This document shows positions 128 to 56,329 of a stretch of 56,329 nucleotides of DNA, piece by piece. Source of the stretch: a virus (taxonomy: Duplodnaviria; Caudoviricetes); IMG/VR virus record IMGVR_UViG_3300031718_000014, positions 1-56,329 of that record. The stretch is one strand, 5' to 3'. Position 1 is the stretch's first letter. The number at the start of each line of letters is the position of its first letter. Made by a program: the position numbers and the translations under genes. The notes beneath the pieces were generated by a model that worked only from the letters and a program-made list of their open reading frames with translations, had not been told where the DNA came from and did no database searches.

Positions 128-369
128 GCATAATGAACGACCGGATCAACGACGAGAAGAATCCCAAGATGTGCTCCGGTCCCGGCTGCAAGAAAAGCTG
201 CGAGGACCGTGTGGACGGTCGCGGTCAGAAGCATCCCGGTTACGTCTCGGTCAAGTACGTCAAGGACCCCAACCAACCTGGTATCGGTCGCAATCTCTTC
301 TTCTGCTCAGAGCTTTGCGATAACAAGTTCGCTCGCCAGCACAACGGAGCCATGGGAGGCACCCAATAG
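1..369 (+). CDS. 3' part of an origin-spanning hypothetical Cys-rich (zinc-finger-like) protein; true start at 56128, 147 aa
   Basis: In frame with ATG 56128 (AAGGAG upstream); CSGPGC...FFCSELC motif. Confidence 0.75.
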   Translation, partial: VRARWDAVRSAHASYMAPFHDESIEDAMRYLEELRKVCEEGARIMNDRINDEKNPKMCSGPGCKKSCEDRVDGRGQKHPGYVSVKYVKDPNQPGIGRNLFFCSELCDNKFARQHNGAMGGTQ

Positions 370-380
370 ATTTCGATGCA

Positions 381-2105: not shown

Positions 2106-2554
2106 TGTCCGAAGCCACTAAGAAAGCCCAGCAGATAGAACTTATGTGGCGTTACTTTTATCAACAGGGCAGCCTTCCAACGGAACTTACCAACGCGGAA
2201 CTGAAGGTAGCGGTTCCACGAACAATCGACATAATGGTCATGCAGCTCATCACTCACATAGCCGGTGAACGCGTGGAAGAAATCCGCTATCCTCTGGATT
2301 GGTGGCAAGCTATCCGTGAACGCTGGCTGCCTGTATTCTGGCTGCGTCTCTATCCGGTCAAATATAAACACTGGAAGATGGACTTTCTCTATCCCAAGAT
2401 CAGGACTTCCGAAGAACCAATGATCGCTCTTTACCACAACAGGGGACCGGCAGGTTATCCTCACTGGGAAGACGAAAAGGTAATCTACAGAAAGAAACGG
2501 GACGGCGTACCTGCTTGGTTGTGGGTACTACTTTCTGTTCCAGAGGAGGATTAA
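2105..2554 (+). CDS. Hypothetical protein
   Basis: TAATG coupling to terL, GGAGG upstream. Confidence 0.7.
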   Translation: MSEATKKAQQIELMWRYFYQQGSLPTELTNAELKVAVPRTIDIMVMQLITHIAGERVEEIRYPLDWWQAIRERWLPVFWLRLYPVKYKHWKMDFLYPKIRTSEEPMIALYHNRGPAGYPHWEDEKVIYRKKRDGVPAWLWVLLSVPEED

Positions 2555-2974
2555 GTGCCCGCACACACTATCGACCTGAACGATCCCAAGACCATCGCTC
2601 GCCTTCTAACCTGCTTGGTTATTCATCGTGGCGGCGAGATTCGCATTCCCGCTGCCGCTTACGATTCCTATGAGCGGGGTAGACTTCTCTTGGTGGACTA
2701 TGATAGAGATAAGGGCGACCTTGTGCTCCGCTCCACCTCGGACTTCGGTCGGGTTGTTGTCGTGCCCCCGGAAAACTCGCAATGGTTAAGACCACAAGAG
2801 GAAATCCCCCGAGAGAGATCGCGAGTCCAAGCCGAGCAGTCGGCGGCTCGCCGGATCGTCCGCTCCGACGAAGAGTTAGCGGAGTTCGAGGAGATGAGGG
2901 AGAAGGAAGCGCAGCTAGCCCGCGAGTCCAAAGAGGGATCGCTCCCCAGAGTGCCGTTCCACACAAAGCAGTAA
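2555..2974 (+). CDS. Hypothetical protein
   Basis: GAGGAGG SD then GTG; abuts the previous gene. Confidence 0.75.
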   Translation: MPAHTIDLNDPKTIARLLTCLVIHRGGEIRIPAAAYDSYERGRLLLVDYDRDKGDLVLRSTSDFGRVVVVPPENSQWLRPQEEIPRERSRVQAEQSAARRIVRSDEELAEFEEMREKEAQLARESKEGSLPRVPFHTKQ

Positions 2975-3270
2975 AAAAGAATCCCCGTGTCGTCTGGGGT
3001 GAAATCTGGGCCGACTTCTCCATCCGTCGTGAAAAGGATCGTACTTCTGCTTATCTTAATCTTCTTCGTCATCTTTCCGACTCTGGTAGTATCCTTGTTC
3101 CTGAACTTGTTTCTCCCAAGGACTTCGCGGACCTTGTCATCCATATTGAATCGTTTGTCAAAGCGGATACTGGAGCGAGAGAAGGTTCGGCTATCGAAGC
3201 CGTCCAACGCTTTCTCAACGGAGACTCCAACGACAAGCCAAAGCAATCCGGTTCCATTAGGGTCCAGTAA
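2782..3270 (+). CDS. Hypothetical protein (start uncertain; 2975-3270 is the convincing part)
   Basis: C/T-ending codon usage matches neighbouring genes in this frame from about 2975. Confidence 0.55.
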   Translation: MVKTTRGNPPREIASPSRAVGGSPDRPLRRRVSGVRGDEGEGSAASPRVQRGIAPQSAVPHKAVKKNPRVVWGEIWADFSIRREKDRTSAYLNLLRHLSDSGSILVPELVSPKDFADLVIHIESFVKADTGAREGSAIEAVQRFLNGDSNDKPKQSGSIRVQ

Positions 3271-3430
3271 TCCCGATCTGGCACCGCCCTGTTCCCACTG
3301 CGGACAGCCGATGCAGAAGAACACCGCTGTTTCTACTCCCTACGTCACCCAATTCATCTGTGCTTGCATGGGCACCGTTCACTTCGTTAACATTCACAAG
3401 GGAGACAAGACGCGAGAGGGTAAAACCTAA
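3230..3430 (+). CDS. Small zinc-ribbon-like protein (CSHC...CAC), putative ACG start
   Basis: Typical codon usage in the 3' part; GGAG 6 nt before ACG; TAATG coupling to portal. Confidence 0.5.
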   Translation, partial: TTSQSNPVPLGSSNPDLAPPCSHCGQPMQKNTAVSTPYVTQFICACMGTVHFVNIHKGDKTREGKT

Positions 3431-4926
3431 TGGCTTTCACTGTCTTCCGCACTAGCAAGGGCGCTTCTCCCGAGCACACACCAGCCGATTCCGGTTCCGA
3501 GAAGGACCTTCGTTCCCGTCAGATAGATGAGTTGTGTCGGCTCTCTGACAACGCTCGCCGTGAGTTCTACGGTCCCAACCACGACGAAGACACTCGCCAA
3601 TTCTACAACCTTCTGGACAAGACCCGCCGCACCCCCACCTTTCGTCCGAAGATCAGCGCCCCTCAATTGCAAGTCCTTCTTCTCTCCGAGGCCGGAGACT
3701 TGACCGATAGCAGAGTCCGAGTCACTATCAACCATAAAGAGAATGGACGAGACAAAGAGCGCGAGCGAGCTTTTCAGGAGCATTGGCGACAGGAACAGTT
3801 CGATTTTGCCCTTCTCCAGTCGAAGATTTACTCTCAGTTCGCGGGCACTGCATTCATACAAGTTGGCTTCGATCCCCTGGCTAGACGTGGCGATGGCTCT
3901 GTCTGGATGGCAGCAAGGGAGCAGCGTTCCGTCTACTGCGACACAATTAGTCCTTGGCCAAACCATTGGAGCTGGCAAGTCGTAGAAGACCTGATGTACC
4001 TAGACGAGATCAAGCTGCGGTATCCAGACCGCGCCGATCAGATTAAGCCTCGCACAGCCAAAGCAGAACAACTGGCCGGGCCTCCTGCTGGCGGCATCGA
4101 GATGCCTCCCGGTCCCATGAGTGTGACCGTTCGTGGTCTGCCGGGTGGTGAGCAGTACAGCACAGACGGTGTTCTATCGGTCCGCACTCTGTTTGCCAAA
4201 GACTCTTCCATTGTCGAGCCGACCGACGCTCAAGTGGCCGCATTCGAGAAGCGCAACATGGTAGTGCCGAAGTATTTGCCGAAGTATCCTCTCGGTCGGA
4301 TGATCGTAGACTGCGAAGGCACCATTCTAGTAGACGGCCACTCCTGGGTTCCACTCGGTCTCATGTGGCCAGCCATCCCGGTCTGGTCCATGCCACCGTG
4401 GGACAACGTGTGGTGCCCGCCTCCGTCCAAATACAGCCGGTCGTTGCAAGAAGCAGGCGAACGCATGATGAGTCAGACTGAAGAGAACGCGCGACGCCTG
4501 AACAACGGCATGATCGTGATTAACGCCGCTTCCGACCTGACCGCTGATTCTGTCGGCGGTATGCCCGGTGAGATTCTGGTGATCTCCGCTAACTCTCCTC
4601 AGAACGCAGTAGAGATCAAGTACCCTGCTCCCATGCCCGCTCAGATGATCCAACTTCCTCAGACCTACTTCGCATTCCAGAAAGAATTGCAAGGTTTCAC
4701 TGCCGCACGCCAAGGGAATCCCGGTGCTGGTAACGTGGGCTCCGATCTATTTGATTCTGCCGTTAGTCAGTCTCAATCCATCACTCGCTTGCGATCCAAG
4801 CTGTTTAGTTACAGTGTCCAGAAAGCCGCCGAACTGGTCTTCTACACAATGTGCAAGTTCTACAAGAATCCTCGGCACTTCTATTCCAATTTAGCCCGTC
4901 AAGTCCCGGAGCAGAAATCCGCATGA
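3430..4926 (+). CDS. Portal protein, N-terminal/main part
   Basis: Position after terL, size, podovirus-portal-like segments (PKYPLGRMIV, NNGMIVI, GMPGEILV, KFYKNPR). Confidence 0.8.
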   Translation: MAFTVFRTSKGASPEHTPADSGSEKDLRSRQIDELCRLSDNARREFYGPNHDEDTRQFYNLLDKTRRTPTFRPKISAPQLQVLLLSEAGDLTDSRVRVTINHKENGRDKERERAFQEHWRQEQFDFALLQSKIYSQFAGTAFIQVGFDPLARRGDGSVWMAAREQRSVYCDTISPWPNHWSWQVVEDLMYLDEIKLRYPDRADQIKPRTAKAEQLAGPPAGGIEMPPGPMSVTVRGLPGGEQYSTDGVLSVRTLFAKDSSIVEPTDAQVAAFEKRNMVVPKYLPKYPLGRMIVDCEGTILVDGHSWVPLGLMWPAIPVWSMPPWDNVWCPPPSKYSRSLQEAGERMMSQTEENARRLNNGMIVINAASDLTADSVGGMPGEILVISANSPQNAVEIKYPAPMPAQMIQLPQTYFAFQKELQGFTAARQGNPGAGNVGSDLFDSAVSQSQSITRLRSKLFSYSVQKAAELVFYTMCKFYKNPRHFYSNLARQVPEQKSA

Positions 4927-5273
4927 GCGACCCATCAAATCCGTTTGCCGGTCTGTTAGAGAAAATCAACTCCAGTCCAGACGATAACCAAGACGGCAAA
5001 CAGACTGGGGGCGGTGACTCCTCTCGTCCTGACAAAGTCACATGGCAGCCTGACGAAGCCTCTGAGGACTATGATGTTCGCTTATCCGATGGTTCTATTC
5101 GCCCGCAGTCTGAGTCCGCTCTGCGTTCCATGGTCATTGAGCTTCGTAAGGCCAATTTGATCGACGCTCGTCACGCTCTGATGATGCTGGACATCCCGGA
5201 CGCGGACGAGATCGCAGATGCATTGGAGAAAGAATTACAACTCAGTGCGTTGGCAAAGTTGCAGAGAAAATGA
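4923..5273 (+). CDS. Portal protein C-terminal part, encoded as a separate ORF
   Basis: ATGA overlap; YDVRLSDGSIRPQS...LIDARHALMMLDIPDADEI resembles portal C-terminal regions. Confidence 0.65.
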   Translation: MSDPSNPFAGLLEKINSSPDDNQDGKQTGGGDSSRPDKVTWQPDEASEDYDVRLSDGSIRPQSESALRSMVIELRKANLIDARHALMMLDIPDADEIADALEKELQLSALAKLQRK

Positions 5274-5274
5274 T

Positions 5275-5688
5275 TCAGCAGAACTTTCCCCAAAAGGCTG
5301 CTCGTCCTTTGTCAATTGCGTCGCGTCTGTTCTTTTTGTTGTTTCCAAGAAAGAGATGTTCTGGATTCACGCAGAGCGGATTGTCGCAAGTGTGGAGCAC
5401 CAATTTGTTTTTGGGGATGGCTCCAAAATGAATAACCCAAGAAACGTGGTGTGCCCAGTGATTCCTTTTTCTGTTGGGGGCTCCCATGGCAATGAGTCCG
5501 TAGTGATCGTTCGTGGCTCCGATCCAAAACCAACAGCCCTCTGTTTTGTAAACGAACTTCCAGAACCTCTCAGCCACGGGAGTGGCGCGGCATTTATTGC
5601 TGCAAAAGTTGGCTTGGCCGTTTCTGACTTGATAAGGTTTACATTGGAAAGGGCGTTTACATCTTTTACATATTCTGGTTATTGGCAT
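5275..5688 (-). CDS. HNH homing endonuclease
   Basis: CKRC...FCSNKC finger, then CWFWIG...AHHVSW...VLHTCDNPLCVNPEHLFLG; AT-richer, antisense to its operon. Confidence 0.9.
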   Translation of the reverse strand: MPITRICKRCKRPFQCKPYQVRNGQANFCSNKCRATPVAERFWKFVYKTEGCWFWIGATNDHYGLIAMGAPNRKRNHWAHHVSWVIHFGAIPKNKLVLHTCDNPLCVNPEHLFLGNNKKNRRDAIDKGRAAFWGKFC

Positions 5689-5710: not shown

Positions 5711-5755
5711 AAGGAGATGCAACTGGCTGCATTGGCCAAGCTCCAACGCAAATGA
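5711..5755 (+). pseudogene. Orphaned duplicate of the portal C-terminus (KEMQLAALAKLQRK*)
   Basis: 12/14 aa identical to KELQLSALAKLQRK* at 5229-5273. Confidence 0.85.
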
Positions 5756-8187: not shown

Positions 8188-8703
8188 TCAACATGCCGGT
8201 TCGATTCCATATTCGGGTTCTTTGTTGTGGGGACAATAACCAAAAAACCCCAGCGAACAGTTGCAGTTGTAACAGAGAACCCGAAAGTCGTCAGGGAAAC
8301 CGTGACGGATTATCCAGAGATAAAGGTCCGTCGAATTTGTCAATTTCGCATCTCTTCGATGCTTGTTCCCACCGCCTTTTACGTGGTCGATTGACAAGAA
8401 CTCGATGCGGGTCTCTCCACAACACGCGCACAGTCTGCCGTAGTGATCGAAAATCAGTTCGCGCTGTTTTATTTTATAATTCAAAATCCTCGCACGGTTT
8501 TCTTCCGGATGCTTTGCTCGCCACTTGGCGCTGTATTCGTTCGTCTTTCCAGGATGAGCGTCTAGCCATTTGCGAGTGTTTGCTTTCTGTTGTTCCTTAT
8601 GTGTCGCATAGTATTTTTTGCAATTTGCGAGGATTTGTTCGCGCTTTGCGAGATACCTCTCTCTGGCTTTCTGTCGAGCGACTTCTGGATCTTTGTAAGG
8701 CAT
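8188..8703 (-). CDS. HNH endonuclease
   Basis: CACCGE...LSIDHV...VLCYNCN...CPH; GGAGG SD; antisense insertion. Confidence 0.88.
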   Translation of the reverse strand: MPYKDPEVARQKARERYLAKREQILANCKKYYATHKEQQKANTRKWLDAHPGKTNEYSAKWRAKHPEENRARILNYKIKQRELIFDHYGRLCACCGETRIEFLSIDHVKGGGNKHRRDAKLTNSTDLYLWIIRHGFPDDFRVLCYNCNCSLGFFGYCPHNKEPEYGIEPAC

Positions 8704-8752
8704 TTGTCCTCCCAACCGGCTTTGTAGAGTTTACCACAAAAGGAGAACTAAC

Positions 8753-34947: not shown

Positions 34948-36486
34948 CTATTTTTCAAGGGAAGCCCAATTATTTGCAAACGCCACATGGACTCCGATAG
35001 GAACGACCAGAGGGTAAGCCGTTTCCATGATCTCTTTGACCTCGTTCCCGGCATAGGTCTTCAGGAAGTCGTGGTCAGTCAGCTCGAACAGCAATTCGTC
35101 GTGGACTTCCAGTATGGGCTCCAACCGGAACTCACTGAAGTCCCGCCAGAACTCCAATAGCCACTGCCAGATACGAGCTTCCATGATCTTCTTCAGACAG
35201 TGAGCACTCGACTGCACTACGTGAGTAAAGCTCTGACGTTCGGCCTCCGTTTTCAGCGACTCAATGGCCGAATGGATGTTAGGCAGGTATCTGATCCGGC
35301 CAAACATGTCTTTCACGTAACCGTGACGGCGGCAGAACTCCATCTCCTTCTTCTGCCACGCACGGACACCGGAATAGATGTCCAGCCACGATTCTATCAG
35401 CCAGTCACACTCTTCGACGGTACGCGGGTCGCCACCCAGCTCCTGGTACTTGTCGAACTGAGCGGACAGACCCACCCCAGTGATGCCGTTGCAGATTCCA
35501 AACCCGGTACGTTTGGCTGGACCACGGTGCTTGTTCTTGTCTACCTTGCTGACTGGGATCTTGAATATCTCCGCTGCGGTCTCAGTATGAATATCCTTGC
35601 CCGAATGGAACATGTCGATTAACTTAGCGTCACCTGACAGGTGTGCCGTCACCCGGAGAAACCACTGATCCAAGTCGAACGTCCCTAGAACACAACCCTC
35701 CGGTGCAATGAACCCTCTGCGAATCTCCTTCCCGATCTCACTAGCCACAGGGATAGCCAACAGGTTAGGATCGTAAGCAGCGGTCTGACCGTTAGGTGAC
35801 GAAGTGAGAGAGAAGCGGGAATAGATGCGACTGTCATCGTGGACCCACGGTAGCATTCCGTCCACGTAAGTTCCTTTGAGTTTCTGCAATTCCCGATAGT
35901 CTAGGATCATGGGAACGATGGGGTGCTTCTTGCGATTGCCTTGCAGAGCTTTCTCGTCCGTGGACTCTCTCTTCCGGCTCTTTGTCATTCTGGTAGTGGT
36001 CAGGCCCAGCTTCTTGTAAAGTAGATCTGCCACCTGATCCCCGGAGTTGGGATTAATGTGCCCCATTTCAACGTGTTCCCCGACTAGGGAGTCGATCTCA
36101 CCACCCTTGATCTCCAGTAGCGCATCCAGGTACTCACCAAATTGATGGAAGTGTTGGGGATCGACCATGGTCCCATTGCGGTGCATCCGTTCGTAGTAGG
36201 GGATTACAGCGAGGTCTATCTCTTCCACTCTTCCCAGATCCAGACCACTATGTGCGCGACTAAGTTCAGGATAAATGCGACAAGTACAATCCGCATCGCG
36301 AGCAGCATAACGAACCGCCTTGTTTAACGGGATGTCGTCTAAAGTTGCGGACGGGATCGTGCCCCAAGCGGCTTCAATGTCCTTGCAACGGTCTGGGAAG
36401 TCCGCTCTAATCTTCTCCCAGATCCCTTTCGGATTTTCTGAGACAATGGCGTTTTGGATTCTTCTGGCCAGTGATTGCTTACCCAA
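34948..36486 (-). CDS. Family A DNA polymerase (ExoIII motif plus polymerase domain), divergent active site
   Basis: YAARDAD, INPNSGDQV, YRELQKLKGTY, GKEIRRGF, GYVKDMFGRIR, VHDELLFE; GAGGT then TTG. Confidence 0.9.
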   Translation of the reverse strand: MGKQSLARRIQNAIVSENPKGIWEKIRADFPDRCKDIEAAWGTIPSATLDDIPLNKAVRYAARDADCTCRIYPELSRAHSGLDLGRVEEIDLAVIPYYERMHRNGTMVDPQHFHQFGEYLDALLEIKGGEIDSLVGEHVEMGHINPNSGDQVADLLYKKLGLTTTRMTKSRKRESTDEKALQGNRKKHPIVPMILDYRELQKLKGTYVDGMLPWVHDDSRIYSRFSLTSSPNGQTAAYDPNLLAIPVASEIGKEIRRGFIAPEGCVLGTFDLDQWFLRVTAHLSGDAKLIDMFHSGKDIHTETAAEIFKIPVSKVDKNKHRGPAKRTGFGICNGITGVGLSAQFDKYQELGGDPRTVEECDWLIESWLDIYSGVRAWQKKEMEFCRRHGYVKDMFGRIRYLPNIHSAIESLKTEAERQSFTHVVQSSAHCLKKIMEARIWQWLLEFWRDFSEFRLEPILEVHDELLFELTDHDFLKTYAGNEVKEIMETAYPLVVPIGVHVAFANNWASLEK

Positions 36487-37481
36487 TTATGCACCTCAAT
36501 TAGCCACTGAATCTTCTTCTCTTTGTCCGCTTCCCCGATCACGTCTTCGTAATCGTCCTGAACCATCCCGCATAGCCTGCGACTGAGTGGCTTGAGTCCC
36601 TGTGGAAACAAACACAGGTGGTATGCTTTAACCATGGTGTCGGTGAACCGGAACCCCTCTATTCCCATGGAACGCAGAACGGCAATGTCGTGGAAAGCGT
36701 TGTGTAATACGACTGTGACTCCATTCCATTTTACATAGTCAGCAATAGCACTAAGCCATTCCTTGTCGCTTGCCAGAACCACGTATCCTTCTCCGATACC
36801 AAAAGTAAAACTCAATCCCCATGGTTTCTCTGCCGATCCCTCGGTGTCCATGTAGATTAGAGTAGGGTTCTTCCTGCCATGGAAGATCAAACTGAACAGT
36901 TCTCTAGAGTAATCCGTGAGTAACATGTACTGAGGATCAGGGCAAGTGTCGATCAAGTGGTCTGCACTACCAGACGCTCCCCGAACCATCCGGCAGAACG
37001 CTTGGAAGTCCGACCAGACTAGCGGAGTCATGCTAGCCGAATGGAGTCCGAACGCGGGATGGTACAGGGGCATCATGCGGAAACGGCCCTGTGACGAGAC
37101 GAACGGCAGACCGTGACTCCAGTCCATCTCCAGATCGCCCCCAAGGAAGTAACGCGCTGCGAAACGGCCTACTAGACCAATGTACTTGGGTCGGACGGTC
37201 TTCAACTCTTCGATCAGGAAGTGTTCATCCCGTCTGATCTCGTCCGGTGTGGGGTCTGGATTCCCCTTCAGGAAGTCTTTGCACAGATTAGTGCAATACA
37301 CATCGTCCCGATGGATGCCGCCTTCCAAGAGGTAACGGTCCAGTTCCTTGCCCGACTTCCCGCAGAAGGGGTAACCGCGACGGGACTCCTCTTCTCCCGC
37401 ACGTTCTCCCAAAATAAGTACATCACATGGCACGGGGCCACGTCCCCAGACGTACTTTAGTTGACTTGGTTTCGTTTCCAT
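36339..37481 (-). CDS. Uracil-DNA-glycosylase-like domain fused to 3'-5' exonuclease (ExoI/II); N-terminal half of the split polymerase
   Basis: GERAGEEE..GYPFCGKSG, YCTN, YHPA; MDTE, HNAFHD, DTMV. Confidence 0.85.
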   Translation of the reverse strand: METKPSQLKYVWGRGPVPCDVLILGERAGEEESRRGYPFCGKSGKELDRYLLEGGIHRDDVYCTNLCKDFLKGNPDPTPDEIRRDEHFLIEELKTVRPKYIGLVGRFAARYFLGGDLEMDWSHGLPFVSSQGRFRMMPLYHPAFGLHSASMTPLVWSDFQAFCRMVRGASGSADHLIDTCPDPQYMLLTDYSRELFSLIFHGRKNPTLIYMDTEGSAEKPWGLSFTFGIGEGYVVLASDKEWLSAIADYVKWNGVTVVLHNAFHDIAVLRSMGIEGFRFTDTMVKAYHLCLFPQGLKPLSRRLCGMVQDDYEDVIGEADKEKKIQWLIEVHNWVSNHWPEESKTPLSQKIRKGSGRRLERTSQTVARTLKPLGARSRPQL

Positions 37482-37945
37482 GTTCGTATCGCGTGACAGT
37501 TGGCACAGACAATCTCACACTTCTCCAGCTCTCTTTCGATGGTTCTCCAGCCAGTTCCCAAGAGTCTGCCGATATTGTCTCGTTTATCTCTTATGTGATC
37601 GAAGTGCATTACGTAGTGAGGAAAGTTACCGCCACAATCGGAGCAAGGGGTCACTTCCTTGAGAGCCTTGAGGTATTCCCTTATCTTTGCAGACCTTCTG
37701 TTGGCCTTCTCCCGCATGTTCTTGCGACCGCGAGGAGTTTTTCTCCACATCCTCTGGTAAGCTAGCTGATTCTCTTTTCTCTGTTCTGGAGAGAGTGTGC
37801 TTTTTGGTCTAAGTCCCATTAATCTAGCGTTAGCTCTATGCCCGGCAGAACGTCCGAAACATTGACTGGAACAGAATCTTCGGTTAGGTGCTCTACTAGT
37901 GAACTCACACCCACACTGTTCACACTTATAATTGAACGATCTCAT
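37457..37945 (-). CDS. HNH endonuclease
   Basis: CEQC..FCSSQC; CSDC...HFDH...CEIVCANCH. Confidence 0.88.
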   Translation of the reverse strand: MRSFNYKCEQCGCEFTSRAPNRRFCSSQCFGRSAGHRANARLMGLRPKSTLSPEQRKENQLAYQRMWRKTPRGRKNMREKANRRSAKIREYLKALKEVTPCSDCGGNFPHYVMHFDHIRDKRDNIGRLLGTGWRTIERELEKCEIVCANCHAIRTWKRNQVN

Positions 37946-38679
37946 TTGCCATCCATCAGCGCTTTGGTCACCTTGGCCGCAATCCCCTTGCCTATCCCTT
38001 CGATCTGTTCCCACTCATCCTGATTGGCCAGTACCATCTCCACCACGCTGCCAAAATGCGCTGCCACTGCCTTGCTCTTAGTCCACCCGATATTCGGCAG
38101 TTCCGCTGCGATCCGGCGAGTCAGGTTGGGCTTAATCAGGATCTCGCTATCAACCTGAGCTTCGTCAAATGCCAGATGGGAGCGGTGCTCTTCCCACTCT
38201 TTTCCGGTCCACCACGAATGAAGATCAGCAATGTAGCGGGCAGTTTCAAGGCGTGATAATGTTCGTCGGACTCGAACGCCACCTCGCGTCTCCATAGTAG
38301 TAAGCCAGTGGTCCAGATCGCGGTAGAGGAATCTCCTGCTGCCCAGAGACAAAGGCTCCATCCGCTTCCCTTTGCGATACATGAGTAGTCCTGTTTCGTA
38401 ATCACACGAGAACTGGCCTTCCAAGACAAGCCACACGCGACCATAGTTCTTAATGAGTCCGGGCAACTGACGACCAGCAAATCGTCCATCGCAAATAGAA
38501 TTGAGGCAGTCCCTGATCTTCTTGATCTCAATTCCCACCTCCATGGTGCTGCCGTTGGGACCGTTGCCCTTTATAGCCGCGTCACCGTAATCCAATCGGC
38601 AGAGAGTGAACGGGACTCTCCACTTCTCGAAAAACACAGAGAGATCACCTGAACCTATTCTGTTATCAAGGCGAATCAC
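37942..38679 (-). CDS. ERCC4/XPF-like nuclease with HhH motif (possible resolvase)
   Basis: LDNR, LDYGD, IEIKKIRDCLNSICDGRF, LVLEG, IEGIGKG. Confidence 0.85.
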   Translation of the reverse strand: MIRLDNRIGSGDLSVFFEKWRVPFTLCRLDYGDAAIKGNGPNGSTMEVGIEIKKIRDCLNSICDGRFAGRQLPGLIKNYGRVWLVLEGQFSCDYETGLLMYRKGKRMEPLSLGSRRFLYRDLDHWLTTMETRGGVRVRRTLSRLETARYIADLHSWWTGKEWEEHRSHLAFDEAQVDSEILIKPNLTRRIAAELPNIGWTKSKAVAAHFGSVVEMVLANQDEWEQIEGIGKGIAAKVTKALMDGK

Positions 38680-38843
38680 TTCGATACCTCGTGAGGACAA
38701 AACCCGAAGAAGCCTCTTGCTAAATTGCAGTACCTGAGCACGTAACTTACGAGCACGCGCTCTGCTCCAATTCCTGAAGTAAGCTTTGGACTTCTCTGGG
38801 TTTTCCCTTCGCCATTACGTCGTCTTTGTTCTAGTGTTGACAC
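38676..38843 (-). pseudogene. Decayed, internally deleted HNH endonuclease
   Basis: WRRENPEKSKAYFRNWSRARARKLRAQVL and CNLARGFFGFCPHE in different frames match the N- and C-termini of the HNH at 8188-8703. Confidence 0.7.
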
Positions 38844-38857
38844 TAACTTTCTCCCAG

Positions 38858-39052
38858 TCACCAGTGATTCCACCAGAGCATATAGAACCAGTTACAGATC
38901 GCTCCCAGTAGCGTCTTGTGCCCGTGACAGCACTGGTACTCGGGAGTGAACGCACTAACCGGCAGACCATCCCAGTCAAAGCACCAGTGGCATCCCGGAC
39001 CGCGTAGCACCTTGCCGCGCCAATGCAAACAATCCTTCTCCCAATCGGTCAC
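38858..39052 (-). CDS. Small Trp/Cys-rich hypothetical protein
   Basis: GGGAG SD then GTG. Confidence 0.6.
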   Translation of the reverse strand: MTDWEKDCLHWRGKVLRGPGCHWCFDWDGLPVSAFTPEYQCCHGHKTLLGAICNWFYMLWWNHW

Positions 39053-39094
39053 TGTCTGGCTCTCCCTACACGTAGTCCAGTGCTTCGCACTGCC

Positions 39095-39358
39095 CTACTC
39101 ACTCTCTGCTCCCACTACTTCACGCACTCTGGCTTTGTCGTAGATTTCTCCAACTCTCTCTACCAGACTGGCAATGAACTCCCGGTCCATAGTATCTATG
39201 TGTTCGTGTTCCACGTCGTAAACCACGCAGACTAGATTCGCACACTCAGGACACTTCTCTACGGCTTCCTTCTCCAGAACGTCGGCTTTGGTAGGGATAG
39301 TGGCCAGCAGTTCGGCAATATCGTTCAGTTCGTATTCGGTCAGTTGGAAGTCCCTCAT
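39095..39358 (-). CDS. Hypothetical protein
   Basis: ATGA-coupled. Confidence 0.6.
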   Translation of the reverse strand: MRDFQLTEYELNDIAELLATIPTKADVLEKEAVEKCPECANLVCVVYDVEHEHIDTMDREFIASLVERVGEIYDKARVREVVGAESE

Positions 39359-40137
39359 CGCCATTGATCCTCCGTCGTGTCAGGAAACACTAACTGGCCT
39401 ATAGTGGCGAAGTTATTCAATTCCCCCTGGTAGTCCTCTCCATCTAGTTCCGGGTTCATCCCGCATGAAATCACAGTGCTATGATAACGGTCCGGTATAG
39501 GTTCCTTGTCATCTACCCAGTGTTGCACCACTAAATCACATTCATAGACCATCTTGCCCCAACCCTCCAGCACCATCTCTCCGGTAGGCTCGCTCTTCTT
39601 AGTCTCTTTGATGTACTGGTATTCCCGCTTCATCCTGTGTGTGAACACGACATTAGCATTGCTGTTACGAGCTAGATCGACCCACATCTTCATCTCCCGG
39701 TTGACCGGACCGTATTCGCGTTCCAGCACTTTCTCAGTCCGTCCGAAGCTGGCTAGGCGAGCAATCTCGTACAGTTCCGCTGCTCCGTCTACTGCTACGG
39801 TGCGAGCCTCGCCAAGAGCTTGAATGTAGTCAGTCCGCATCTGTTGCAATTGAGCGTCTGCAGCTTCTGATACTTCCTTGGCGGAGTTCCCGTTCGACCG
39901 GATGCCTGTGAACGCTTTGCGGTAGCGTGCCACGTAGATTTCCTTTTCCTTCTGGAAGCCCTTAATGGCCCGGTGAATCCCGTCGTCAATGTCGATCACA
40001 GCAATGGGCGGCGGCCCGGTCAAGTACCAGTGGGTCTTGCCACACTTCTGCATGGCTTGGGTGCAAACGATTAGGCGGGCCGGAATGTCAATGCCAGCCC
40101 GGATAAAACCGCTCTCACTACGTTTCTGTGACGCCAC
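39355..40137 (-). CDS. AAA/RecA-like ATPase (Sak4/AAA_24-like)
   Basis: AMQKCGKT Walker A, VIDID, VAVDG Walker B, NVVFTH. Confidence 0.75.
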   Translation of the reverse strand: MASQKRSESGFIRAGIDIPARLIVCTQAMQKCGKTHWYLTGPPPIAVIDIDDGIHRAIKGFQKEKEIYVARYRKAFTGIRSNGNSAKEVSEAADAQLQQMRTDYIQALGEARTVAVDGAAELYEIARLASFGRTEKVLEREYGPVNREMKMWVDLARNSNANVVFTHRMKREYQYIKETKKSEPTGEMVLEGWGKMVYECDLVVQHWVDDKEPIPDRYHSTVISCGMNPELDGEDYQGELNNFATIGQLVFPDTTEDQWR

Positions 40138-40279
40138 GTCGTATCTCCCGTCTGGACATCCACCGTTGCCCACAGCCGCAATAACACAGGTGTTTTCCCC
40201 TGTGTCCGTGATTCAGACAGCATCTGTATTCTAGTGTGCCGCGATCTCTCACGGCCTTGCATTTACGTTTTGGTGCCAC
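40118..40279 (-). CDS. Small Cys/His protein
   Basis: C..C.L..GH.G.H motif, AAGGAG upstream. Confidence 0.5.
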   Translation of the reverse strand: MAPKRKCKAVRDRGTLEYRCCLNHGHRGKHLCYCGCGQRWMSRREIRRGVTET

Positions 40280-40871
40280 TACGTTTCTCCTTCTCCATCG
40301 CTCGGGCATTGGCAGTGATTAACCGCCAGTTGTCTTCTAGTTCCCTGTCAGTGAACTCCACATCGAACTGCTTTACCTGAGGTCCGCTGTCCGCGTAGTT
40401 CCCGTTCACGAAGAACACTCGCAGACTCACCCGGTTGAGTTTCATCATCCAGCAGTACGCTTTGACCTGGACAAACCACGACCAGAAGTCCGTCTCTATG
40501 CTACGGCGGCTGGACCTCCAAGTGGCTTTGGTCTCGTCTATCGCCATCCCGGTTAGCTCCAGTCCATCCGGTGTCCCCACTATCCCATCCAACTCAATCT
40601 CCCCGGTACGAACGTATTCCCCACCGAAGATAGGGGTAAGAGACTGGGCGAGTAAGTCTTCCCATGCGTACCCAACGCTCACGTAGTTCCCCATGCGCTT
40701 CTTCTCGTTAGGGGAAAGGTCCTCGTAAGGCTTCCTCTGACCACGATGTATCACTCGATTGTCCACCCAACGCAAAATCTCACTTATGTGAACTTTGTCA
40801 GTTGAACGATCCCCTCTTCGTCCAGAAAGAACAAGGGGGTCTAGTTCAATTAGTCGTTCGACTATTTTCAT
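40263..40871 (-). CDS. PD-(D/E)XK (Cas4-like) exonuclease
   Basis: HISE, GTPDGL, DETKAT, QVKAY. Confidence 0.82.
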   Translation of the reverse strand: MKIVERLIELDPLVLSGRRGDRSTDKVHISEILRWVDNRVIHRGQRKPYEDLSPNEKKRMGNYVSVGYAWEDLLAQSLTPIFGGEYVRTGEIELDGIVGTPDGLELTGMAIDETKATWRSSRRSIETDFWSWFVQVKAYCWMMKLNRVSLRVFFVNGNYADSGPQVKQFDVEFTDRELEDNWRLITANARAMEKEKRSGTKT

Positions 40872-41388
40872 GCGGACAAACTCCACCGTTATATTCCATT
40901 CCACAGTTACAGTTGTAACAACGAGGCTCGAAACCATCAGGGAATCCGTTGTTTTTCAACCATTGGTATATGTCCTTCTTTATCTGTCTGCGGTGTTCAG
41001 CTCCATCATTGTTGATGTGATGAATCGTTAAGAAACCAAACTCAGTTTCTCCACAACAAGCACAGACCCCACCATAGTGTTCAATTACTAGTTTGCGGAG
41101 TCTCTTTCTATAGTTTCTAGAAAGACGATTGACAATCTCGCGGTGTGTTACCTGATACTCCTTACGATGCACCTGCTGCCACGCTAAGTAATACTCCTTG
41201 TGTTTCGCTCTCCATTGCCGCGCTAATTCGGCATGTCTTCCAGGATGTTCCTTTCTCCACTTTCTTGAGCGCTCCCTTTCTTTTTCTCTCGCTGCCTCAC
41301 TTACATGCAGCTTGTCTGTAGAGCGGTCCACACGACTGCGAGACATGACTAACGGGTCTAAATCGATGGACCGCTCTACGAGACGCAT
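40846..41388 (-). CDS. HNH endonuclease fused to a 31-aa duplicate of the exonuclease N-terminus
   Basis: CACCGE...LTIHHI...CYNCN..CPH; N-terminus MRLVERSIDLDPLVMSRSRVDRSTDKLHVSE. Confidence 0.88.
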   Translation of the reverse strand: MRLVERSIDLDPLVMSRSRVDRSTDKLHVSEAAREKERERSRKWRKEHPGRHAELARQWRAKHKEYYLAWQQVHRKEYQVTHREIVNRLSRNYRKRLRKLVIEHYGGVCACCGETEFGFLTIHHINNDGAEHRRQIKKDIYQWLKNNGFPDGFEPRCYNCNCGMEYNGGVCPHENSRTTN

Positions 41389-41393
41389 TGCGA

Positions 41394-42257
41394 TCACTCT
41401 GCCGCTGTAATGAACTCGCCGTCGATCACCCACGGCGCATCAGCCTGTTCCAGAAAATCGTTCTGAACCACGTACTTGATTAGTTCCTTCCTGTGCGTGG
41501 CCTTGGGAGCGGCTTGGAACGCAGCCATTCCCAGCCGCTTGACTTCGATGGGACCATCTGCCTTGGCCAGTGCAGCGACCACGGCTTCAATGGCTTCAGT
41601 ATTCAACTCGTCCGTATCTCCGTTGCTAGAAGGGGATGCAGCGGTCGCAGTAGTCGTTCTCGCACCAGCCGAACTCGCCGCACGAGACGCACCAACGGAT
41701 GACGCTTTTCCCTTTCCCCTTGCTTCCCATGGGAGTGAATGGATCTTGGTGAACACTCCAATGGGCTTGTTCCCTCCCTCCAGTCCTTCCCTCTTCTTCT
41801 TCGGTGCAATCGCGTTCATGTGACCCCGGAGTCCCACCGCAGTCTGAAACCCTTCATCCCGCAGCTTGTCTTCTGGGAACCCTTGATCGACCAGGGCTCC
41901 GAGAAATAGGTAGGCATTGCAGCTATTATTCAGCCCAGTCGCGCTGCTTCCCTCTGCCGGGTAGAAGCACGCTCCGTCGTCAGACGGAACGATCTTACTC
42001 AGATCGCCAGCGGAGTAGTATTGCTCGTGTTCAGTCCCATCGTCGTCCTTCAATTTAACCAGAAGGAACGCGCTGGGTTCCTGACTGCCGTTATAGTCCC
42101 ACGTGGTCGCGGTCATCTCCATGATGGTGGTGTCCACGTTGTCCGGTGCGCCGCCGCCTGAGACTGCGTCTGACGGTGCAACACTGATCGGTTTGCGGTC
42201 CTTACTGCCTGAGCCCGACTTCCCTTTCACAACGCTTGGCTTGCCAAGTGGCGACAT
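41394..42257 (-). CDS. Putative ssDNA-binding/replication protein
   Basis: Position between helicase and exonuclease; beta-rich domain plus Ala/Ser linker. Confidence 0.5.
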   Translation of the reverse strand: MSPLGKPSVVKGKSGSGSKDRKPISVAPSDAVSGGGAPDNVDTTIMEMTATTWDYNGSQEPSAFLLVKLKDDDGTEHEQYYSAGDLSKIVPSDDGACFYPAEGSSATGLNNSCNAYLFLGALVDQGFPEDKLRDEGFQTAVGLRGHMNAIAPKKKREGLEGGNKPIGVFTKIHSLPWEARGKGKASSVGASRAASSAGARTTTATAASPSSNGDTDELNTEAIEAVVAALAKADGPIEVKRLGMAAFQAAPKATHRKELIKYVVQNDFLEQADAPWVIDGEFITAAE

Positions 42258-42287
42258 ATTGGTGGTTCCTCTCTTTTGTTTTGAATT

Positions 42288-44750
42288 TTACTTCTCTAAG
42301 GGTTTGGGTATTACTTTACAAATCTCGACTGCTTCAGCAAACCACTTCGGAGCGAACTTCTTGAACTTAGGCCAGAACCACTCAAAGTGGTCGTCAACCA
42401 CTAAGACCTCCGACCAGTCGTCCTCGCTCCTAGTACTTCTCCCTGCCATCTGAACGATCTCCTGCATCGCTTGGTACATAGGATAGTCTCTGTCCCGGTC
42501 GCTGCGAGCCTTGGTGACTAAGTCTCTAGTGTCTGGGAACGGGACTTTGCACAATATCTGCCAGCGACACTCGGAGTCTGGAAAATCAAACCCGGTACTA
42601 ACGCTCGGGCTCACGAGTATGGCCGGGGCTTTGGTCCCTTTAAATCTTCGTATGGTGTCTTGGGAGGACTCTCGTGTGTGGACGAGCATATGCTCTGCGA
42701 ACTCGCTGTTTCTAGCGATCCACTGCGCTCTTTGATAGGAAACAGCGTGGATAATTCCCTTCCCTTGTAGTCTGGGCCTGACGATAGCGTCGATCTTCGA
42801 TATCCAGGCTCGTAAGTGCCCCGGTGTGGCTCGCTTGTCCATGCGTACACTAGGGACAAAATAGACAGGACGCCTACCCACTGGAAAGCTGGAAGGGTAC
42901 TCCCGAAAGTCCACATCGCCATGACCAATACCCAGAAGTTCAAGAGTCTTCGGACGAATCGTGGCGGAGGTAAGAACGACTCTCTTAATCCCACAGAACA
43001 GCCTCCTTTCGGCATAGTCGGCAGGCCACACCGGATCGAAGCGGGCTACTAGGCTCCCGCTGGGTCCTCGCCGCGTCACTTGAAAGACCCAGTCTCCCTG
43101 AGCGGACGATAACTGCGCCAGTTTCCGCTCAAGTTTCTTGAGATGCTTCGCTTGATGCACGGCCCACCGACTGTCGCCGTTATTAGCCAAACCGCCCTTT
43201 ACAGCCGCCTCAAGGTCTTCTCGCTGCGACCGGGCACGGTCCAGCCAAACTCTTGCCGTCAACTTCCATGGTTCAAAGTTAATTAGTTCGGGGAAACGGT
43301 CCTCGTCTACTAACTCCAAGTCGCTAGGGAATAGTTCTACTGCCAGATAGTTACTAAGTTGGTCCAGCGCATCGTGAGCCTCGTCTAGTACCAGCATCCC
43401 GAACGCACCGAGACCGCCGCCGTGTTCCATTTGGTGCATCCAATAGGAGTAGTTGGTAGAGACTAGAGTAACTTGTCTGGCCAACTTCACACGGTCGAAG
43501 TAGACGCAGCCGCTTTCCTTCAACTCGCAGCGAACTCCACCGTGGCACGGTCCTTCGTCGCACTTGATCTCGTCCGCAAAGTCTGTTTGAACATCACGCA
43601 GAGTGATAGTCCGACCGTTCGCTTTGTACAGGCAGGGGTAATTGTTCTGACCACGAACGTCCAATAGACCGCTATCCCCAAAGTCCTTCTCCAACTGATT
43701 CTGCAACCCTCTGGTACTGGTCAGGAATGCGGTACGTTCCCCAGACAATTGCGCCGCTGCCAGATAAGCCAGTGATTTGCCGGAGTTATGCACCACCATT
43801 CCGTTTGCGACAAAGTTTTCGTGCGGTTCACAAGCTATTAGGTCGTATACCTCTTCACTTATTTGCGCTCTCTTGACCCACGATACACGAACCTCTTTAG
43901 GTATCCCTTGATGGAAACTGGTGTGATCTCCATGTAATTTCTGGTGAGCCTCGTGCGTAAGAACCTGCAAGTTATCCAAGTCGTTGTGCGAGCTATCTTC
44001 ATCTCGATGGTGGACGGCAAAAATCTCTGGATCAAGGAATGTTAGTCCTTTTGTATTTCCCCTTCGGCAAACTTCTATGAACTCGTCTATGAATAAGCCG
44101 TTAAGGTTTGCTTCGACAACGATGCAGTGATAAGGAACGCGGTACAACCTGCCTTCCACATGGTTTCCTCTGTGTCTATAAGAACCGGAGTTTCCAGCGT
44201 AGGGATGGTTTTTTAATCCTTGAATTTGTCGATACTGTGCTTTGTGGTGCTTCTTTCCGTTTGATCGCGGTCTTGGTGTATCGCAGATCACTTCATCTGT
44301 GGAGACCAAATCCTCAATGCAAACAAAGCCTCGTGACGTGAGAACCTGATGATCGGGAGTTGCTCGCAATGACTTACCATCACGCAGGGTTAAAAGGACA
44401 GTTTCGCGCCGTCCTGAATAACCTACAGATGAAAATTCGTGAAGTCTTATCTCTTTGCCGTCGAAGCTTCGCGTAAAGGGAAGAATGCCTCTAGCTCTGC
44501 GATTGATATGGTTCTGTTGACAATAAAATTCCTGTTCAATTGTTCGCTGAATACTATTCTTCGCCCGATTCACTTGGACGATAGTGTCCCCAACCACACA
44601 GCCGGTTGGGAGTGCCAGCACCACAAACCGCTTGGTACTCTCAACCGCCCGTAGCGCAGCGTCCTCTTGCCCTGGTCGCCATGACTCAAAGCGTTCTGGC
44701 AGTCCCAACCCACTGGGCTCTGGGAGTATTCCGATGGAACTAACTGGCAA
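42288..44750 (-). CDS. DinG/Rad3-like SF2 helicase containing an intein
   Basis: RPGQ, PTG[intein]SGKS, DEAH, LTSAT, GFDFP, KVPFP, QMAGRSTRSEDD; AGGAG then TTG. Confidence 0.9.
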   Translation of the reverse strand: MPVSSIGILPEPSGLGLPERFESWRPGQEDAALRAVESTKRFVVLALPTGCVVGDTIVQVNRAKNSIQRTIEQEFYCQQNHINRRARGILPFTRSFDGKEIRLHEFSSVGYSGRRETVLLTLRDGKSLRATPDHQVLTSRGFVCIEDLVSTDEVICDTPRPRSNGKKHHKAQYRQIQGLKNHPYAGNSGSYRHRGNHVEGRLYRVPYHCIVVEANLNGLFIDEFIEVCRRGNTKGLTFLDPEIFAVHHRDEDSSHNDLDNLQVLTHEAHQKLHGDHTSFHQGIPKEVRVSWVKRAQISEEVYDLIACEPHENFVANGMVVHNSGKSLAYLAAAQLSGERTAFLTSTRGLQNQLEKDFGDSGLLDVRGQNNYPCLYKANGRTITLRDVQTDFADEIKCDEGPCHGGVRCELKESGCVYFDRVKLARQVTLVSTNYSYWMHQMEHGGGLGAFGMLVLDEAHDALDQLSNYLAVELFPSDLELVDEDRFPELINFEPWKLTARVWLDRARSQREDLEAAVKGGLANNGDSRWAVHQAKHLKKLERKLAQLSSAQGDWVFQVTRRGPSGSLVARFDPVWPADYAERRLFCGIKRVVLTSATIRPKTLELLGIGHGDVDFREYPSSFPVGRRPVYFVPSVRMDKRATPGHLRAWISKIDAIVRPRLQGKGIIHAVSYQRAQWIARNSEFAEHMLVHTRESSQDTIRRFKGTKAPAILVSPSVSTGFDFPDSECRWQILCKVPFPDTRDLVTKARSDRDRDYPMYQAMQEIVQMAGRSTRSEDDWSEVLVVDDHFEWFWPKFKKFAPKWFAEAVEICKVIPKPLEK
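43785..44600 (-). mobile_element. Intein (272 aa) with HNH endonuclease domain
   Basis: N-terminal CVVGDT, block B ATPDH, VYDL...NFVANGMVVHN followed by Ser; VHHRDEDSSHNDLDNL. Confidence 0.93.
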
Positions 44751-44904
44751 CTTGTGTTTGCTCCTGTGGCTTTGGTGTTCCACTGCCTTTGCATCGGTGG
44801 TGCGTTCGCTTGTTCCTGTGATCCACAATGGTTCCGTCCGACCACAGACGTACCAGTCTGCCGCACACGTCGCAGGGTATTCGGATCTCACTTTGAGTTT
44901 TCAT
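44740..44904 (-). CDS. 54-aa zinc-finger-like protein (CDVC...H...CKGSG)
   Basis: TAATG-coupled, GGAG SD; not in the ORF track. Confidence 0.6.
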   Translation of the reverse strand: MKTQSEIRIPCDVCGRLVRLWSDGTIVDHRNKRTHHRCKGSGTPKPQEQTQVAS

Positions 44905-56127: not shown

Positions 56128-56329
56128 ATGCCCAAAACAAAGCCGATTGCTACGGTGGTTGAACCTGAACGCGAATCTGAATCTTCCCACATGCGTAGAG
56201 TGGTCCGTGCACGCTGGGATGCCGTTCGTTCCGCCCACGCTTCTTACATGGCTCCCTTCCACGACGAGAGCATTGAAGACGCCATGCGGTATCTGGAAGA
56301 GTTACGCAAGGTCTGTGAGGAAGGCGCGC
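56128..56329 (+). CDS. 5' part of the origin-spanning protein ending at 369
   Basis: TAAGGAG SD; in frame across the junction. Confidence 0.75.
   Translation, partial: MPKTKPIATVVEPERESESSHMRRVVRARWDAVRSAHASYMAPFHDESIEDAMRYLEELRKVCEEGA
56203..56329. repeat. Terminal direct repeat (copy 2)
   Basis: Identical to 1-127; 127 is a common assembler k-mer length. Confidence 0.95.

Follow-up and report, generated by a model that had tools for sequence, protein, structure and literature searches.

A phage HNH endonuclease gene that probably travels with a diverged spare start of the nuclease gene it occupies

We analysed a 56,329-nt phage genome (Duplodnaviria; Caudoviricetes; IMG/VR record IMGVR_UViG_3300031718_000014), hereafter the window, whose numbering is used for coordinates and strands unless another contig is named. 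In this genome an open reading frame (ORF) for an HNH endonuclease lies at the start of a nuclease gene and is bounded on both sides by a copy of that gene's first codons. The comparisons below indicate that this is probably a free-standing HNH homing-endonuclease gene (HEG) which travels as a cassette with a diverged version of codons 1-33 of the nuclease gene that it targets. The native gene start (copy 1) is displaced and now opens the HNH ORF, and a foreign start (copy 2) opens the restored nuclease gene (Table 1).

The duplication of the gene start around the HNH ORF, reported with its coordinates and peptides in a preliminary description of the locus, was confirmed. Both ORFs open with 31-residue versions of the same segment (21/31 aa and 57/93 nt identical), a similarity that reached E = 2e-9 in a tblastn search within the window and z = 21 against shuffled sequences. 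The 8-mer CTCACTTA occurs at 40779 and at 41296, a spacing of 517 nt, and each copy extends 93 nt from its own ATG, so that without these 517 nt copy 1 would continue in frame into codon 32 and one gene would be recreated, as had been noted. The HNH and nuclease ORFs lie in different frames and overlap by 26 nt (HNH stop codon, 40846-40848). A Shine-Dalgarno-like GGTGGAG is located 9 nt ahead of the restored nuclease ATG, within the codons for the conserved N-G-G-V-C-P-H end of the HNH protein, and belongs to a 60-nt stretch that is identical between the window and the second allele carrying the HNH gene (L083, below). Insertion had been placed at the conserved HxSE motif. The cassette does sit at codon 31-33, but the 8-mer shared by the two copies gives no insertion signature and the foreign tract extends 6 nt beyond it, through codons 32-33 (IL in the window, VI in alleles without the HNH gene). 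CTCACTTA was counted three times in the window against 1.3 expected and thus represents only the conserved V/I-S-E codons, with no meaningful target-site duplication; TAAGTGAG is likewise no insertion signature. A blastn search against 50,697 phage records gave no match, and a promoter and terminator scan of 39300-42400 returned one promoter-like site (on the other strand) and no terminators, which was not above shuffled sequences.

Loci without the HNH gene identified the native copy. Four such empty loci were found (L001 and L002 in viral contigs, L084 and L085 in metagenome contigs), with the same gene neighbourhood and a nuclease at 88-89% amino acid identity; they amount to three distinct sequences, the gene being the same in L002 and L084. 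Their gene starts with MRLVERFIDLDPLVMSRSRVDRSTDK followed by L or I and HVSEVIRW, or with MRIVERF... in L085, which is the upstream, HNH-fused type of start. The preliminary description had named empty alleles as a check on its reading, and all four matched the upstream copy and not the downstream one. Copy 1 shared 84/93 nt with L001 and 83/93 nt with L002, compared with 62/93 nt and 56/93 nt for copy 2. Past codon 33, the identity between the window and the empty alleles (82-86% nt) equals that among the empty alleles themselves. Presence of the HNH gene is therefore polymorphic, with filled alleles in the window, L083 and a contig from a third soil study (X3), and empty alleles in L001, L002, L084 and L085. 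An ORF of 91 or 73 aa located upstream of the gene in the empty alleles is missing from the filled ones.

Copy 2 also differed from its surroundings in composition and divergence. Copy 2 had the lowest GC content at third codon positions (GC3), 0.26, followed by the HNH body (0.42), copy 1 (0.58) and the remainder of the nuclease gene (0.68), which bears out the earlier remark that the second copy is A/T-rich. The difference between 0.26 and 0.68 (binomial p = 2e-6) indicates that copy 2 arrived with the HNH gene. Overall GC fell to 0.38-0.45 across 40750-41200. Between copy 1 and copy 2 the proportion of synonymous differences (pS) was 0.93, which is saturated, at a nonsynonymous divergence (dN) of 0.25; between copy 1 and the empty alleles the synonymous divergence (dS) was 0.47-0.81 and dN 0.014-0.059. 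The divergent tract stops after codon 33 (after ATTTTG) and the switch in composition at codon 33/34 is sharp. A foreign, low-GC3 tract thus covers target codons 1-33 and ends abruptly, as in co-conversion. A start of the copy-2 type is also rare, P0001 (L083 type) being the sole example among 22 aligned homologues. The second copy had been called 'recoded'; it differs from the first at 10/31 residues and is a diverged allele, not a synonymous recoding.

The same layout was found in L083 (2675 nt), where the upstream gene is followed by MRLVERFIDLDPLVMSRSRVDRSTDK fused in frame to an HNH ORF, then by the same copy 2 and the nuclease gene. The HNH protein of L083 (195 aa, identical to P0026) is 67% identical to that of the window (L083 1051-1638 versus window 40846-41388), and its junction lies after K26 instead of E31, with LHVS missing and 14 extra N-terminal HNH codons. 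The final ~50 nt of the upstream gene are identical in both filled alleles. Divergence between them was uneven: dS was 0.57 in the upstream gene, 0.34 in copy 1, 0.35 in the last 25 HNH codons, 0.25 in copy 2 and 1.0 in the rest of the nuclease gene, and the HNH body was saturated (pS 0.97, dN 0.27). The HNH 3' end plus copy 2 (pS 0.24; 9/38 synonymous differences) were significantly closer than the gene body (58/105; p = 0.001) or the HNH body (p = 6e-16). In the third-study contig both flanks were covered and 432 other letters replaced the 387-nt HNH body, which is the L083-type length. These observations on L083 and the third-study contig show that the layout is no assembly artefact and that it is older, or has changed more dynamically, than a single recent event would allow; either a swapping of HNH alleles between conserved ends or repeated invasion would account for the history of the filled alleles. 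The arrangement is rare within the nuclease family, the upstream duplicate and HNH gene being found only in the window and L083 among 83 loci, 69 of which were scorable upstream.

The HNH ORF matched the phrog_2255 HNH endonuclease (E = 1.2e-7), a family of the recognised HEG type; no Pfam family matched at E <= 0.01. The motifs CxxCGE...(D/H)HxNNDGxxHRR...CYNCN...CPH, common to 100 HNH homologues, are intact. Among these 100 homologues from the protein collection, an exonuclease-like leader was found only in the window's own protein and P0026 (the L083 type), and it was missing from 80/80 relatives in viral contigs, where N-termini are K/R-rich or zinc-finger. Being restricted to the window and L083 type, the leader is not a general HNH feature, the outcome that would have told against the preliminary description. 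Between a scaffold-like gene and the major capsid gene, on the opposite strand, the window carries a paralogous HNH (8188-8715, minus strand; 40% identical), which has ~43 residues of its own where the fusion carries the leader.

In the HNH frame, copy 1 holds the start codons at residues 1, 15 and 20; the next follow at 73, 144 and 164, and two further GTGs lie upstream within the preceding gene. A start at residue 73 has no Shine-Dalgarno motif and would lose the portion homologous to the N-terminal region of the family. No start outside the borrowed segment therefore precedes residue 73, and translation from the copy 1 start appears to be the only plausible way to make the protein, in line with the earlier proposal that the HNH borrows the host gene's start. 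Between the two filled alleles copy 1 carries one nonsynonymous and five synonymous changes (binomial p = 0.004 versus neutrality), a low divergence that is also explicable by nucleotide-level constraint from the hairpin described below. In the HNH body, dN of 0.27 against saturated dS between these alleles indicates purifying selection.

The label 'exonuclease' for the host gene was upheld at the level of fold. By sequence, the nuclease had no match in Pfam (E <= 0.01), PHROGs (E <= 0.01) or PDB sequences (profile search, E <= 1, 0 hits). An AlphaFold2 model built on a 25-sequence alignment (mean predicted local distance difference test score, 76) was matched by Foldseek to the Cas4 protein SSO0001 (4ic1, E = 5e-5), lambda exonuclease (3slp/1avq), RecE (3h4r), MGME1 and a phage-related exonuclease, with E from 5e-5 to 1e-3, probability 1.0 (4ic1, 3slp, 3h4r, 5zyv, 3k93) and template modelling scores of 0.4-0.56. 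The predicted structure is that of a lambda-exonuclease/Cas4-like PD-(D/E)XK fold. D102, E113 and K115 are invariant in the alignment and probably form the D...E-x-K catalytic motif. Within the duplicated segment R22 and H28 are invariant and S30 nearly so, indicating that the nuclease gene needs an intact N-terminus. A profile scan of genome contigs with this alignment gave 68 pattern matches, none of which was confirmed.

The native gene start also encodes a long hairpin. Copy 1 contains a perfect 13-nt inverted repeat (41318-41330/41367-41379), and all empty alleles and L083 copy 1 fold alike (z -2.7 to -4.4). RNAalifold on five sequences gave 27 pairs with a 14-bp core that is invariant despite a gene dS near 1; the substitutions comprised a double change at one pair and one-sided changes at three. 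Copy 2 forms a hairpin with a different fold (40802-40849; minimum free energy (MFE) -35.4, z -3.3; z -4.2 for copy 2 of L083). Such a hairpin is conserved throughout the nuclease family: a long one, of unrelated sequence, was present in the first ~100 nt of 7/9 distant homologues (family loci L088-L103 were among those examined), and the residues encoded by the hairpin (9-20) are variable and poorly modelled. This supports the reading of copy 2 as a natural gene start from another lineage. Both HNH junctions, in the window and L083, lie directly 3' of the hairpin.

Table 1 Coordinates of the duplicated gene ends, HNH genes and associated features in the window and in other viral contigs.
Sequence	Feature	Position	Strand	Remarks
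Window	Upstream gene, 287 aa, function unassigned	41394..42257	-	Stop 5 nt before copy 1 ATG; homologues in equal position in L001, L002, L083
Window	Copy 1: native first 31 codons of nuclease gene, now leader and start of HNH ORF	41296..41388	-	
Window	Long hairpin, stem ~22 bp, inside copy 1, codons 2-25	41314..41384	-	MFE -49.7, z -4.2
Window	HNH endonuclease ORF, 180 aa: copy 1 plus HNH body	41388..40846	-	Starts MRLVERSIDLDPLVMSRSRVDRSTDKLHVSE
Window	HNH-specific body, foreign, low GC	40849..41295	-	GC 0.44, GC3 0.42; not in empty alleles
Window	Shine-Dalgarno-like GGTGGAG for restored nuclease gene	40881..40887	-	Inside HNH codons N-G-G-V
Window	Copy 2: foreign replacement of nuclease codons 1-33	40773..40871	-	First 26 nt overlap HNH ORF end
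Window	Restored nuclease gene, 202 aa	40871..40263	-	Starts MKIVERLIELDPLVLSGRRGDRSTDKVHISE
Window	Replacement portal C-terminal segment, EKELQLSALAKLQRK and stop	5226..5273	+	Present portal end
Window	HNH of another family, opposite strand	5275..5688	-	phrog_1872/826 HNH, E 1e-25
Window	Displaced native portal C-terminal remnant, KEMQLAALAKLQRK and stop	5711..5755	+	Stop overlaps ATG of next gene
L047	N-terminal type	2777-4082		23-codon remnant of putative cytosine methyltransferase start, HNH, replacement start and gene; 39/69 nt, 14/23 aa
L045	N-terminal type	2829-4069		17-codon remnant, HNH, replacement start of 196-aa ORF; 32/51 nt, 13/17 aa
L210	N-terminal type	1119-2309		Unfused remnant
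L236	N-terminal type	1024-2222		Remnant fused in frame to HNH, as in window
L247	C-terminal type	196-726		Native tail fused in frame to HNH end
L203	C-terminal type	1089-1716		

A comparable arrangement was observed at the end of the portal gene, and the parallel drawn in the preliminary description is real. Here, the HNH gene is flanked by two copies of the final 15-16 residues of the portal (12/16 aa identical; E = 4e-4 in a short-peptide self-comparison of the window), and the related portals of L163 and L164 are uninterrupted, with no HNH after the portal. The portal of the window is itself split into overlapping ORFs (3430-4926, 498 aa; 4851-5273, 140 aa) where relatives have a single ORF of 566-568 aa; this may reflect a frameshift, an insertion or a sequencing error.

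We surveyed other viral contigs by comparing the translated left and right flanks of HNH genes, scoring 78/80 loci of the first family and 80/80 of the portal-type family. Seven and nine loci, respectively, reached z >= 3, and on inspection the same layout was present at 6/158 HNH loci, two in the first family (L047, L045) and four in the portal-type family (L210, L236, L247, L203), the latter four being assessed by protein alignments. By reading of motifs, the targets appear to include putative cytosine methyltransferase, RusA-like and Hjc-like genes. Similarities at L015, L013, L007, L050, L029, L171, L194, L216, L215 and L242 were gapped, of low complexity or due to internal repeats and were not counted. 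An earlier scan of the first 45 HNH residues against downstream DNA at 80 loci, blind to unfused cases, found nothing but self-overlap artefacts (L081, L052, L053). As a control, 120 pseudo-inserts were placed elsewhere in the same loci, on the presumption, untrue for some loci, that the HNH match begins at 3001; two reached z >= 3 (16/158 versus 2/120, Fisher p = 0.005). One of these, L078, consists of two adjacent paralogous genes with no flanked insert, and the other, L017, is a long gapped Q-rich match. At the junctions of the N-terminal-type cases, the overlap between the HNH stop and the restored gene's start measures 26 nt in the window, 4 in L047, 8 in L045 and 16 in L210, and copy 2 of L236 starts at the final base of the HNH stop codon (1662). 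The proposal of a general strategy is supported as regards the layout, by the portal and six further cases, but not as regards fusion to the host start, which was found in only 2/5 N-terminal-type cases (window/L083 and L236). Taken as a whole, the earlier interpretation is supported by these sequence comparisons.

The following course would connect these observations. Lodged at codon 31-33 of the native gene, the cassette leaves the native first 31 codons upstream, where, fused to the HNH body, they would supply a start codon, coupling to the upstream gene and the conserved 5' hairpin. The cassette's own gene start, with its ATG and a Shine-Dalgarno motif in the last HNH codons, would restore the nuclease ORF, so that splicing is unneeded. 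The HNH enzyme would cut HNH-less alleles near codons 26-34, and repair of the break would draw on the filled genome, the left homology arm being formed by copy 1 together with upstream DNA and the right one by the gene body. The diverged copy 2 would both abolish the target site and be too unlike copy 1 to recombine the cassette out. A broader proposal, which we advance tentatively and rate as somewhat short of an even chance, is that phage HNHs recurrently invade gene ends without an intron or intein, carrying a diverged spare of 13-33 codons. The displaced piece would then act as a homology arm and sometimes as the start or stop of the HNH gene, the coupling of the restored gene to the parasite would make loss costly, and the hairpin may be recognised or exploited.

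Several points weigh against this account. The donor lineage, with a copy-2-type start and its own diverged gene body, was not found among 24 protein homologues or 83 loci. The filled alleles combine similar flanks with saturated HNH bodies, which a single recent homing event would not predict, and copy 1 may have been kept as a by-product of repair. The peptides compared in the six further cases are short (13-23 aa), and no empty alleles were found for L047 and L045, whose target-gene relatives in the viral contigs were the loci themselves only. Inspected cases (6/158) are not significantly more frequent than control matches if both of the latter are taken as real (2/120, p = 0.47), so the argument for them rests on geometry and not on count. 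In L047, L045 and L210 the HNH has its own start, and use of the host start is thus not general.

Some of these observations would also fit a repair scar without ongoing function, which we consider unlikely. The HNH gene would then normally be intergenic, just upstream of the nuclease gene in a diverged donor phage, and a single half-homologous repair event, homologous where it crossed over in the gene body but joined illegitimately at the break, would have left the recipient's 5' fragment behind as an accidental fusion to an HNH gene that may be decaying or immobile. In agreement with this, the remnants are unfused and run into early stops in 3/5 N-terminal-type cases (L047, L045, L210), decayed HNH remnants are present in the window genome, and upstream synteny varies, with the 91-aa/73-aa ORF in empty alleles only, so that upstream homology would be unreliable. 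A mere scar does not, however, account for an in-frame fusion kept in two filled alleles despite differing junctions and very different HNH bodies, for purifying selection on the HNH, for the ratio of one nonsynonymous to five synonymous changes in copy 1, or for the apparent need of the window's HNH for copy 1 in order to be translated.

That the gene's 5' end was duplicated locally in tandem and diverged in place, with the HNH landing between the copies later, is highly improbable. The copies are equal in length (31 codons) and register and both contain a hairpin, as such a duplication would produce, but their synonymous differences are saturated, in comparison to the dS of copy 1 to the empty alleles, the GC3 of copy 2 fits the foreign HNH and not the gene, with the sharp switch at codon 33/34, and a two-copy allele without the HNH occurred in 0/69 scorable loci.

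Still less credible is a reading of the 517 nt as a self-splicing intron, or as bypassed sequence, which would make copy 1 the true first exon and copy 2 irrelevant. Their removal does restore the native frame. Against this, no Rfam family was found at E <= 1 on either strand of 39000-43000 (no ribozyme core), the repeat boundaries, by reading, lack the usual U-before and G-at-end of group I splice junctions, and copy 2 is a complete start with Shine-Dalgarno motif and ATG, lying with 60 nt that are identical between filled alleles and keeping the invariant residues. No joint skipping exactly 517 nt occurred in contigs of three DNA sequencing runs, although contigs cannot show absence. An intein is ruled out by the HNH stop codon and the frame shift relative to the host gene. 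An assembly chimera of two strains, conceivable for a metagenomic assembly such as the window, can be dismissed almost entirely, since a 14-kb contig at depth 30, which may be from the source sample, covers the whole stretch without differences and the layout is repeated in L083 and the third-study contig.

The cassette resembles known forms of intronless homing in part. In phage T4, free-standing HEGs such as seg and mob lie beside their targets, are variably present and co-convert flanking sequence, and the donor's target is diverged and presumably resistant. In such classical cases the recipient flank is replaced by homologous recombination on both sides, no duplicated fragment remains and the HEG has its own start. 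The window HNH shares the position beside the target, the variable presence, the flank co-conversion and the diverged donor version of the target, and differs in its duplicated fragment and apparently borrowed start; it combines a HEG-family nuclease, presence/absence polymorphism, a location outside any intron or intein, and co-conversion, as free-standing HEGs do. T4 mobA together with the translational-bypass element of gene 60 forms a mobile cassette in which a ribosomal hop keeps the host gene functional and guards against self-cleavage. Both systems carry extra sequence that spares the host gene, the device in the window being a duplicate of the gene end and not a ribosomal hop.

Closer counterparts are found in fungal mitochondria, where mobile endonuclease ORFs (mORFs) form gene hybrids, as in atp6, atp9, cox2 and nad3 of Glomus sp. 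(PMC3630166), the first case cited there being atp6 of Allomyces macrogynus (PMC3630166). As in those hybrids, the window has an endonuclease ORF in a protein gene, flanked by two copies of a terminal segment, with splicing unneeded (PMC3630166). In both, the gene core is joined to a foreign, diverged copy (64-81% nt in mORF hybrids, 60-67% in the window) and the displaced native copy is near that of close relatives (91-98% and 89-90%, respectively; PMC3630166), and the mORF is sometimes in phase with the host gene (PMC3630166), as the window HNH is with the native gene start. Those mORFs are mitochondrial LAGLIDADG or GIY-YIG ORFs at the 3' end of genes, whereas the window has a phage HNH at the 5' end (PMC3630166). 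In the window, unlike in those hybrids, the displaced native piece carries a start codon, apparently taken over by the endonuclease, and the start of the restored gene falls within the last part of the endonuclease ORF. The window locus appears to work like the mORF gene-hybrid family without being a member of it. Insertions with N-terminal host-gene duplications are also described in Tremella mitochondria (PMC7315562), where a mobile insertion likewise brings a diverged part of the host gene and leads to partial replacement by a foreign gene (PMC7315562). These are mitochondrial and are described as intron or transposon-like, 1/6 being a real intron, and the available part of the report describes no start-codon takeover (PMC7315562). 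Intron endonuclease ORFs can be fused with the upstream exon in frame, termed 'core creep' (PMC8393795), by which the endonuclease gains host translation signals through upstream coding sequence, as would be the case here (PMC8393795); those fusions are removed by RNA splicing (PMC8393795), whereas no intron was detected in the window and a duplicate restores the host gene. No phage report of such a layout was found in the full-text literature searched, whose coverage leaves out most subscription journals and supplements; the accessible part of PMC10448857 describes no such case, and PMC12724721 contains no occurrence of 'duplicat', 'fused' or 'in-frame'. The locus is best viewed as a counterpart of the mitochondrial gene-hybrid mechanism in a phage, with an HNH gene and at the 5' end, in which the endonuclease in addition appears to take over the host gene's start.

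If so, a selfish endonuclease would have, beyond introns and inteins, a third route for settling harmlessly in an important gene, namely by bringing a spare gene end, and the likeness to fungal mitochondrial gene hybrids points to a solution common to very different genomes. The restored start within the endonuclease ORF suggests a testable self-stabilisation of the parasite, and the process offers a mechanism for the mosaic 5' and 3' ends of phage genes. For annotation, short orphan ORFs beside HNH genes may be displaced gene ends, and HNH proteins may have foreign leaders or tails.

The ends of the window are identical (1-126 = 56203-56328), so that the window is a complete, circularly assembled or terminally redundant genome of ~56.2 kb, and its phage genes include terminase, portal, capsid, DNA polymerase and helicase. 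In all, this genome has at least five HNH elements. The helicase (42288-44891) contains an intein with an HNH domain within the Walker A region (LPTG/C...N/SGKS, slashes marking the junctions); the helicase of L001 (305-2833) is uninterrupted at this site and has an intein at another site instead. The DNA polymerase is encoded by two ORFs (36339-37481 and 34948-36486) in different frames with a 148-nt overlap, directly downstream of a free-standing HNH (37457-38014). A decayed HNH C-terminal remnant, ending in GFFGFCPHEVSK and a stop codon, lies at 38679-38891 on the minus strand, and its end overlaps the start of a 252-aa ORF (37942-38700) with the same end-to-start geometry as at the nuclease gene.

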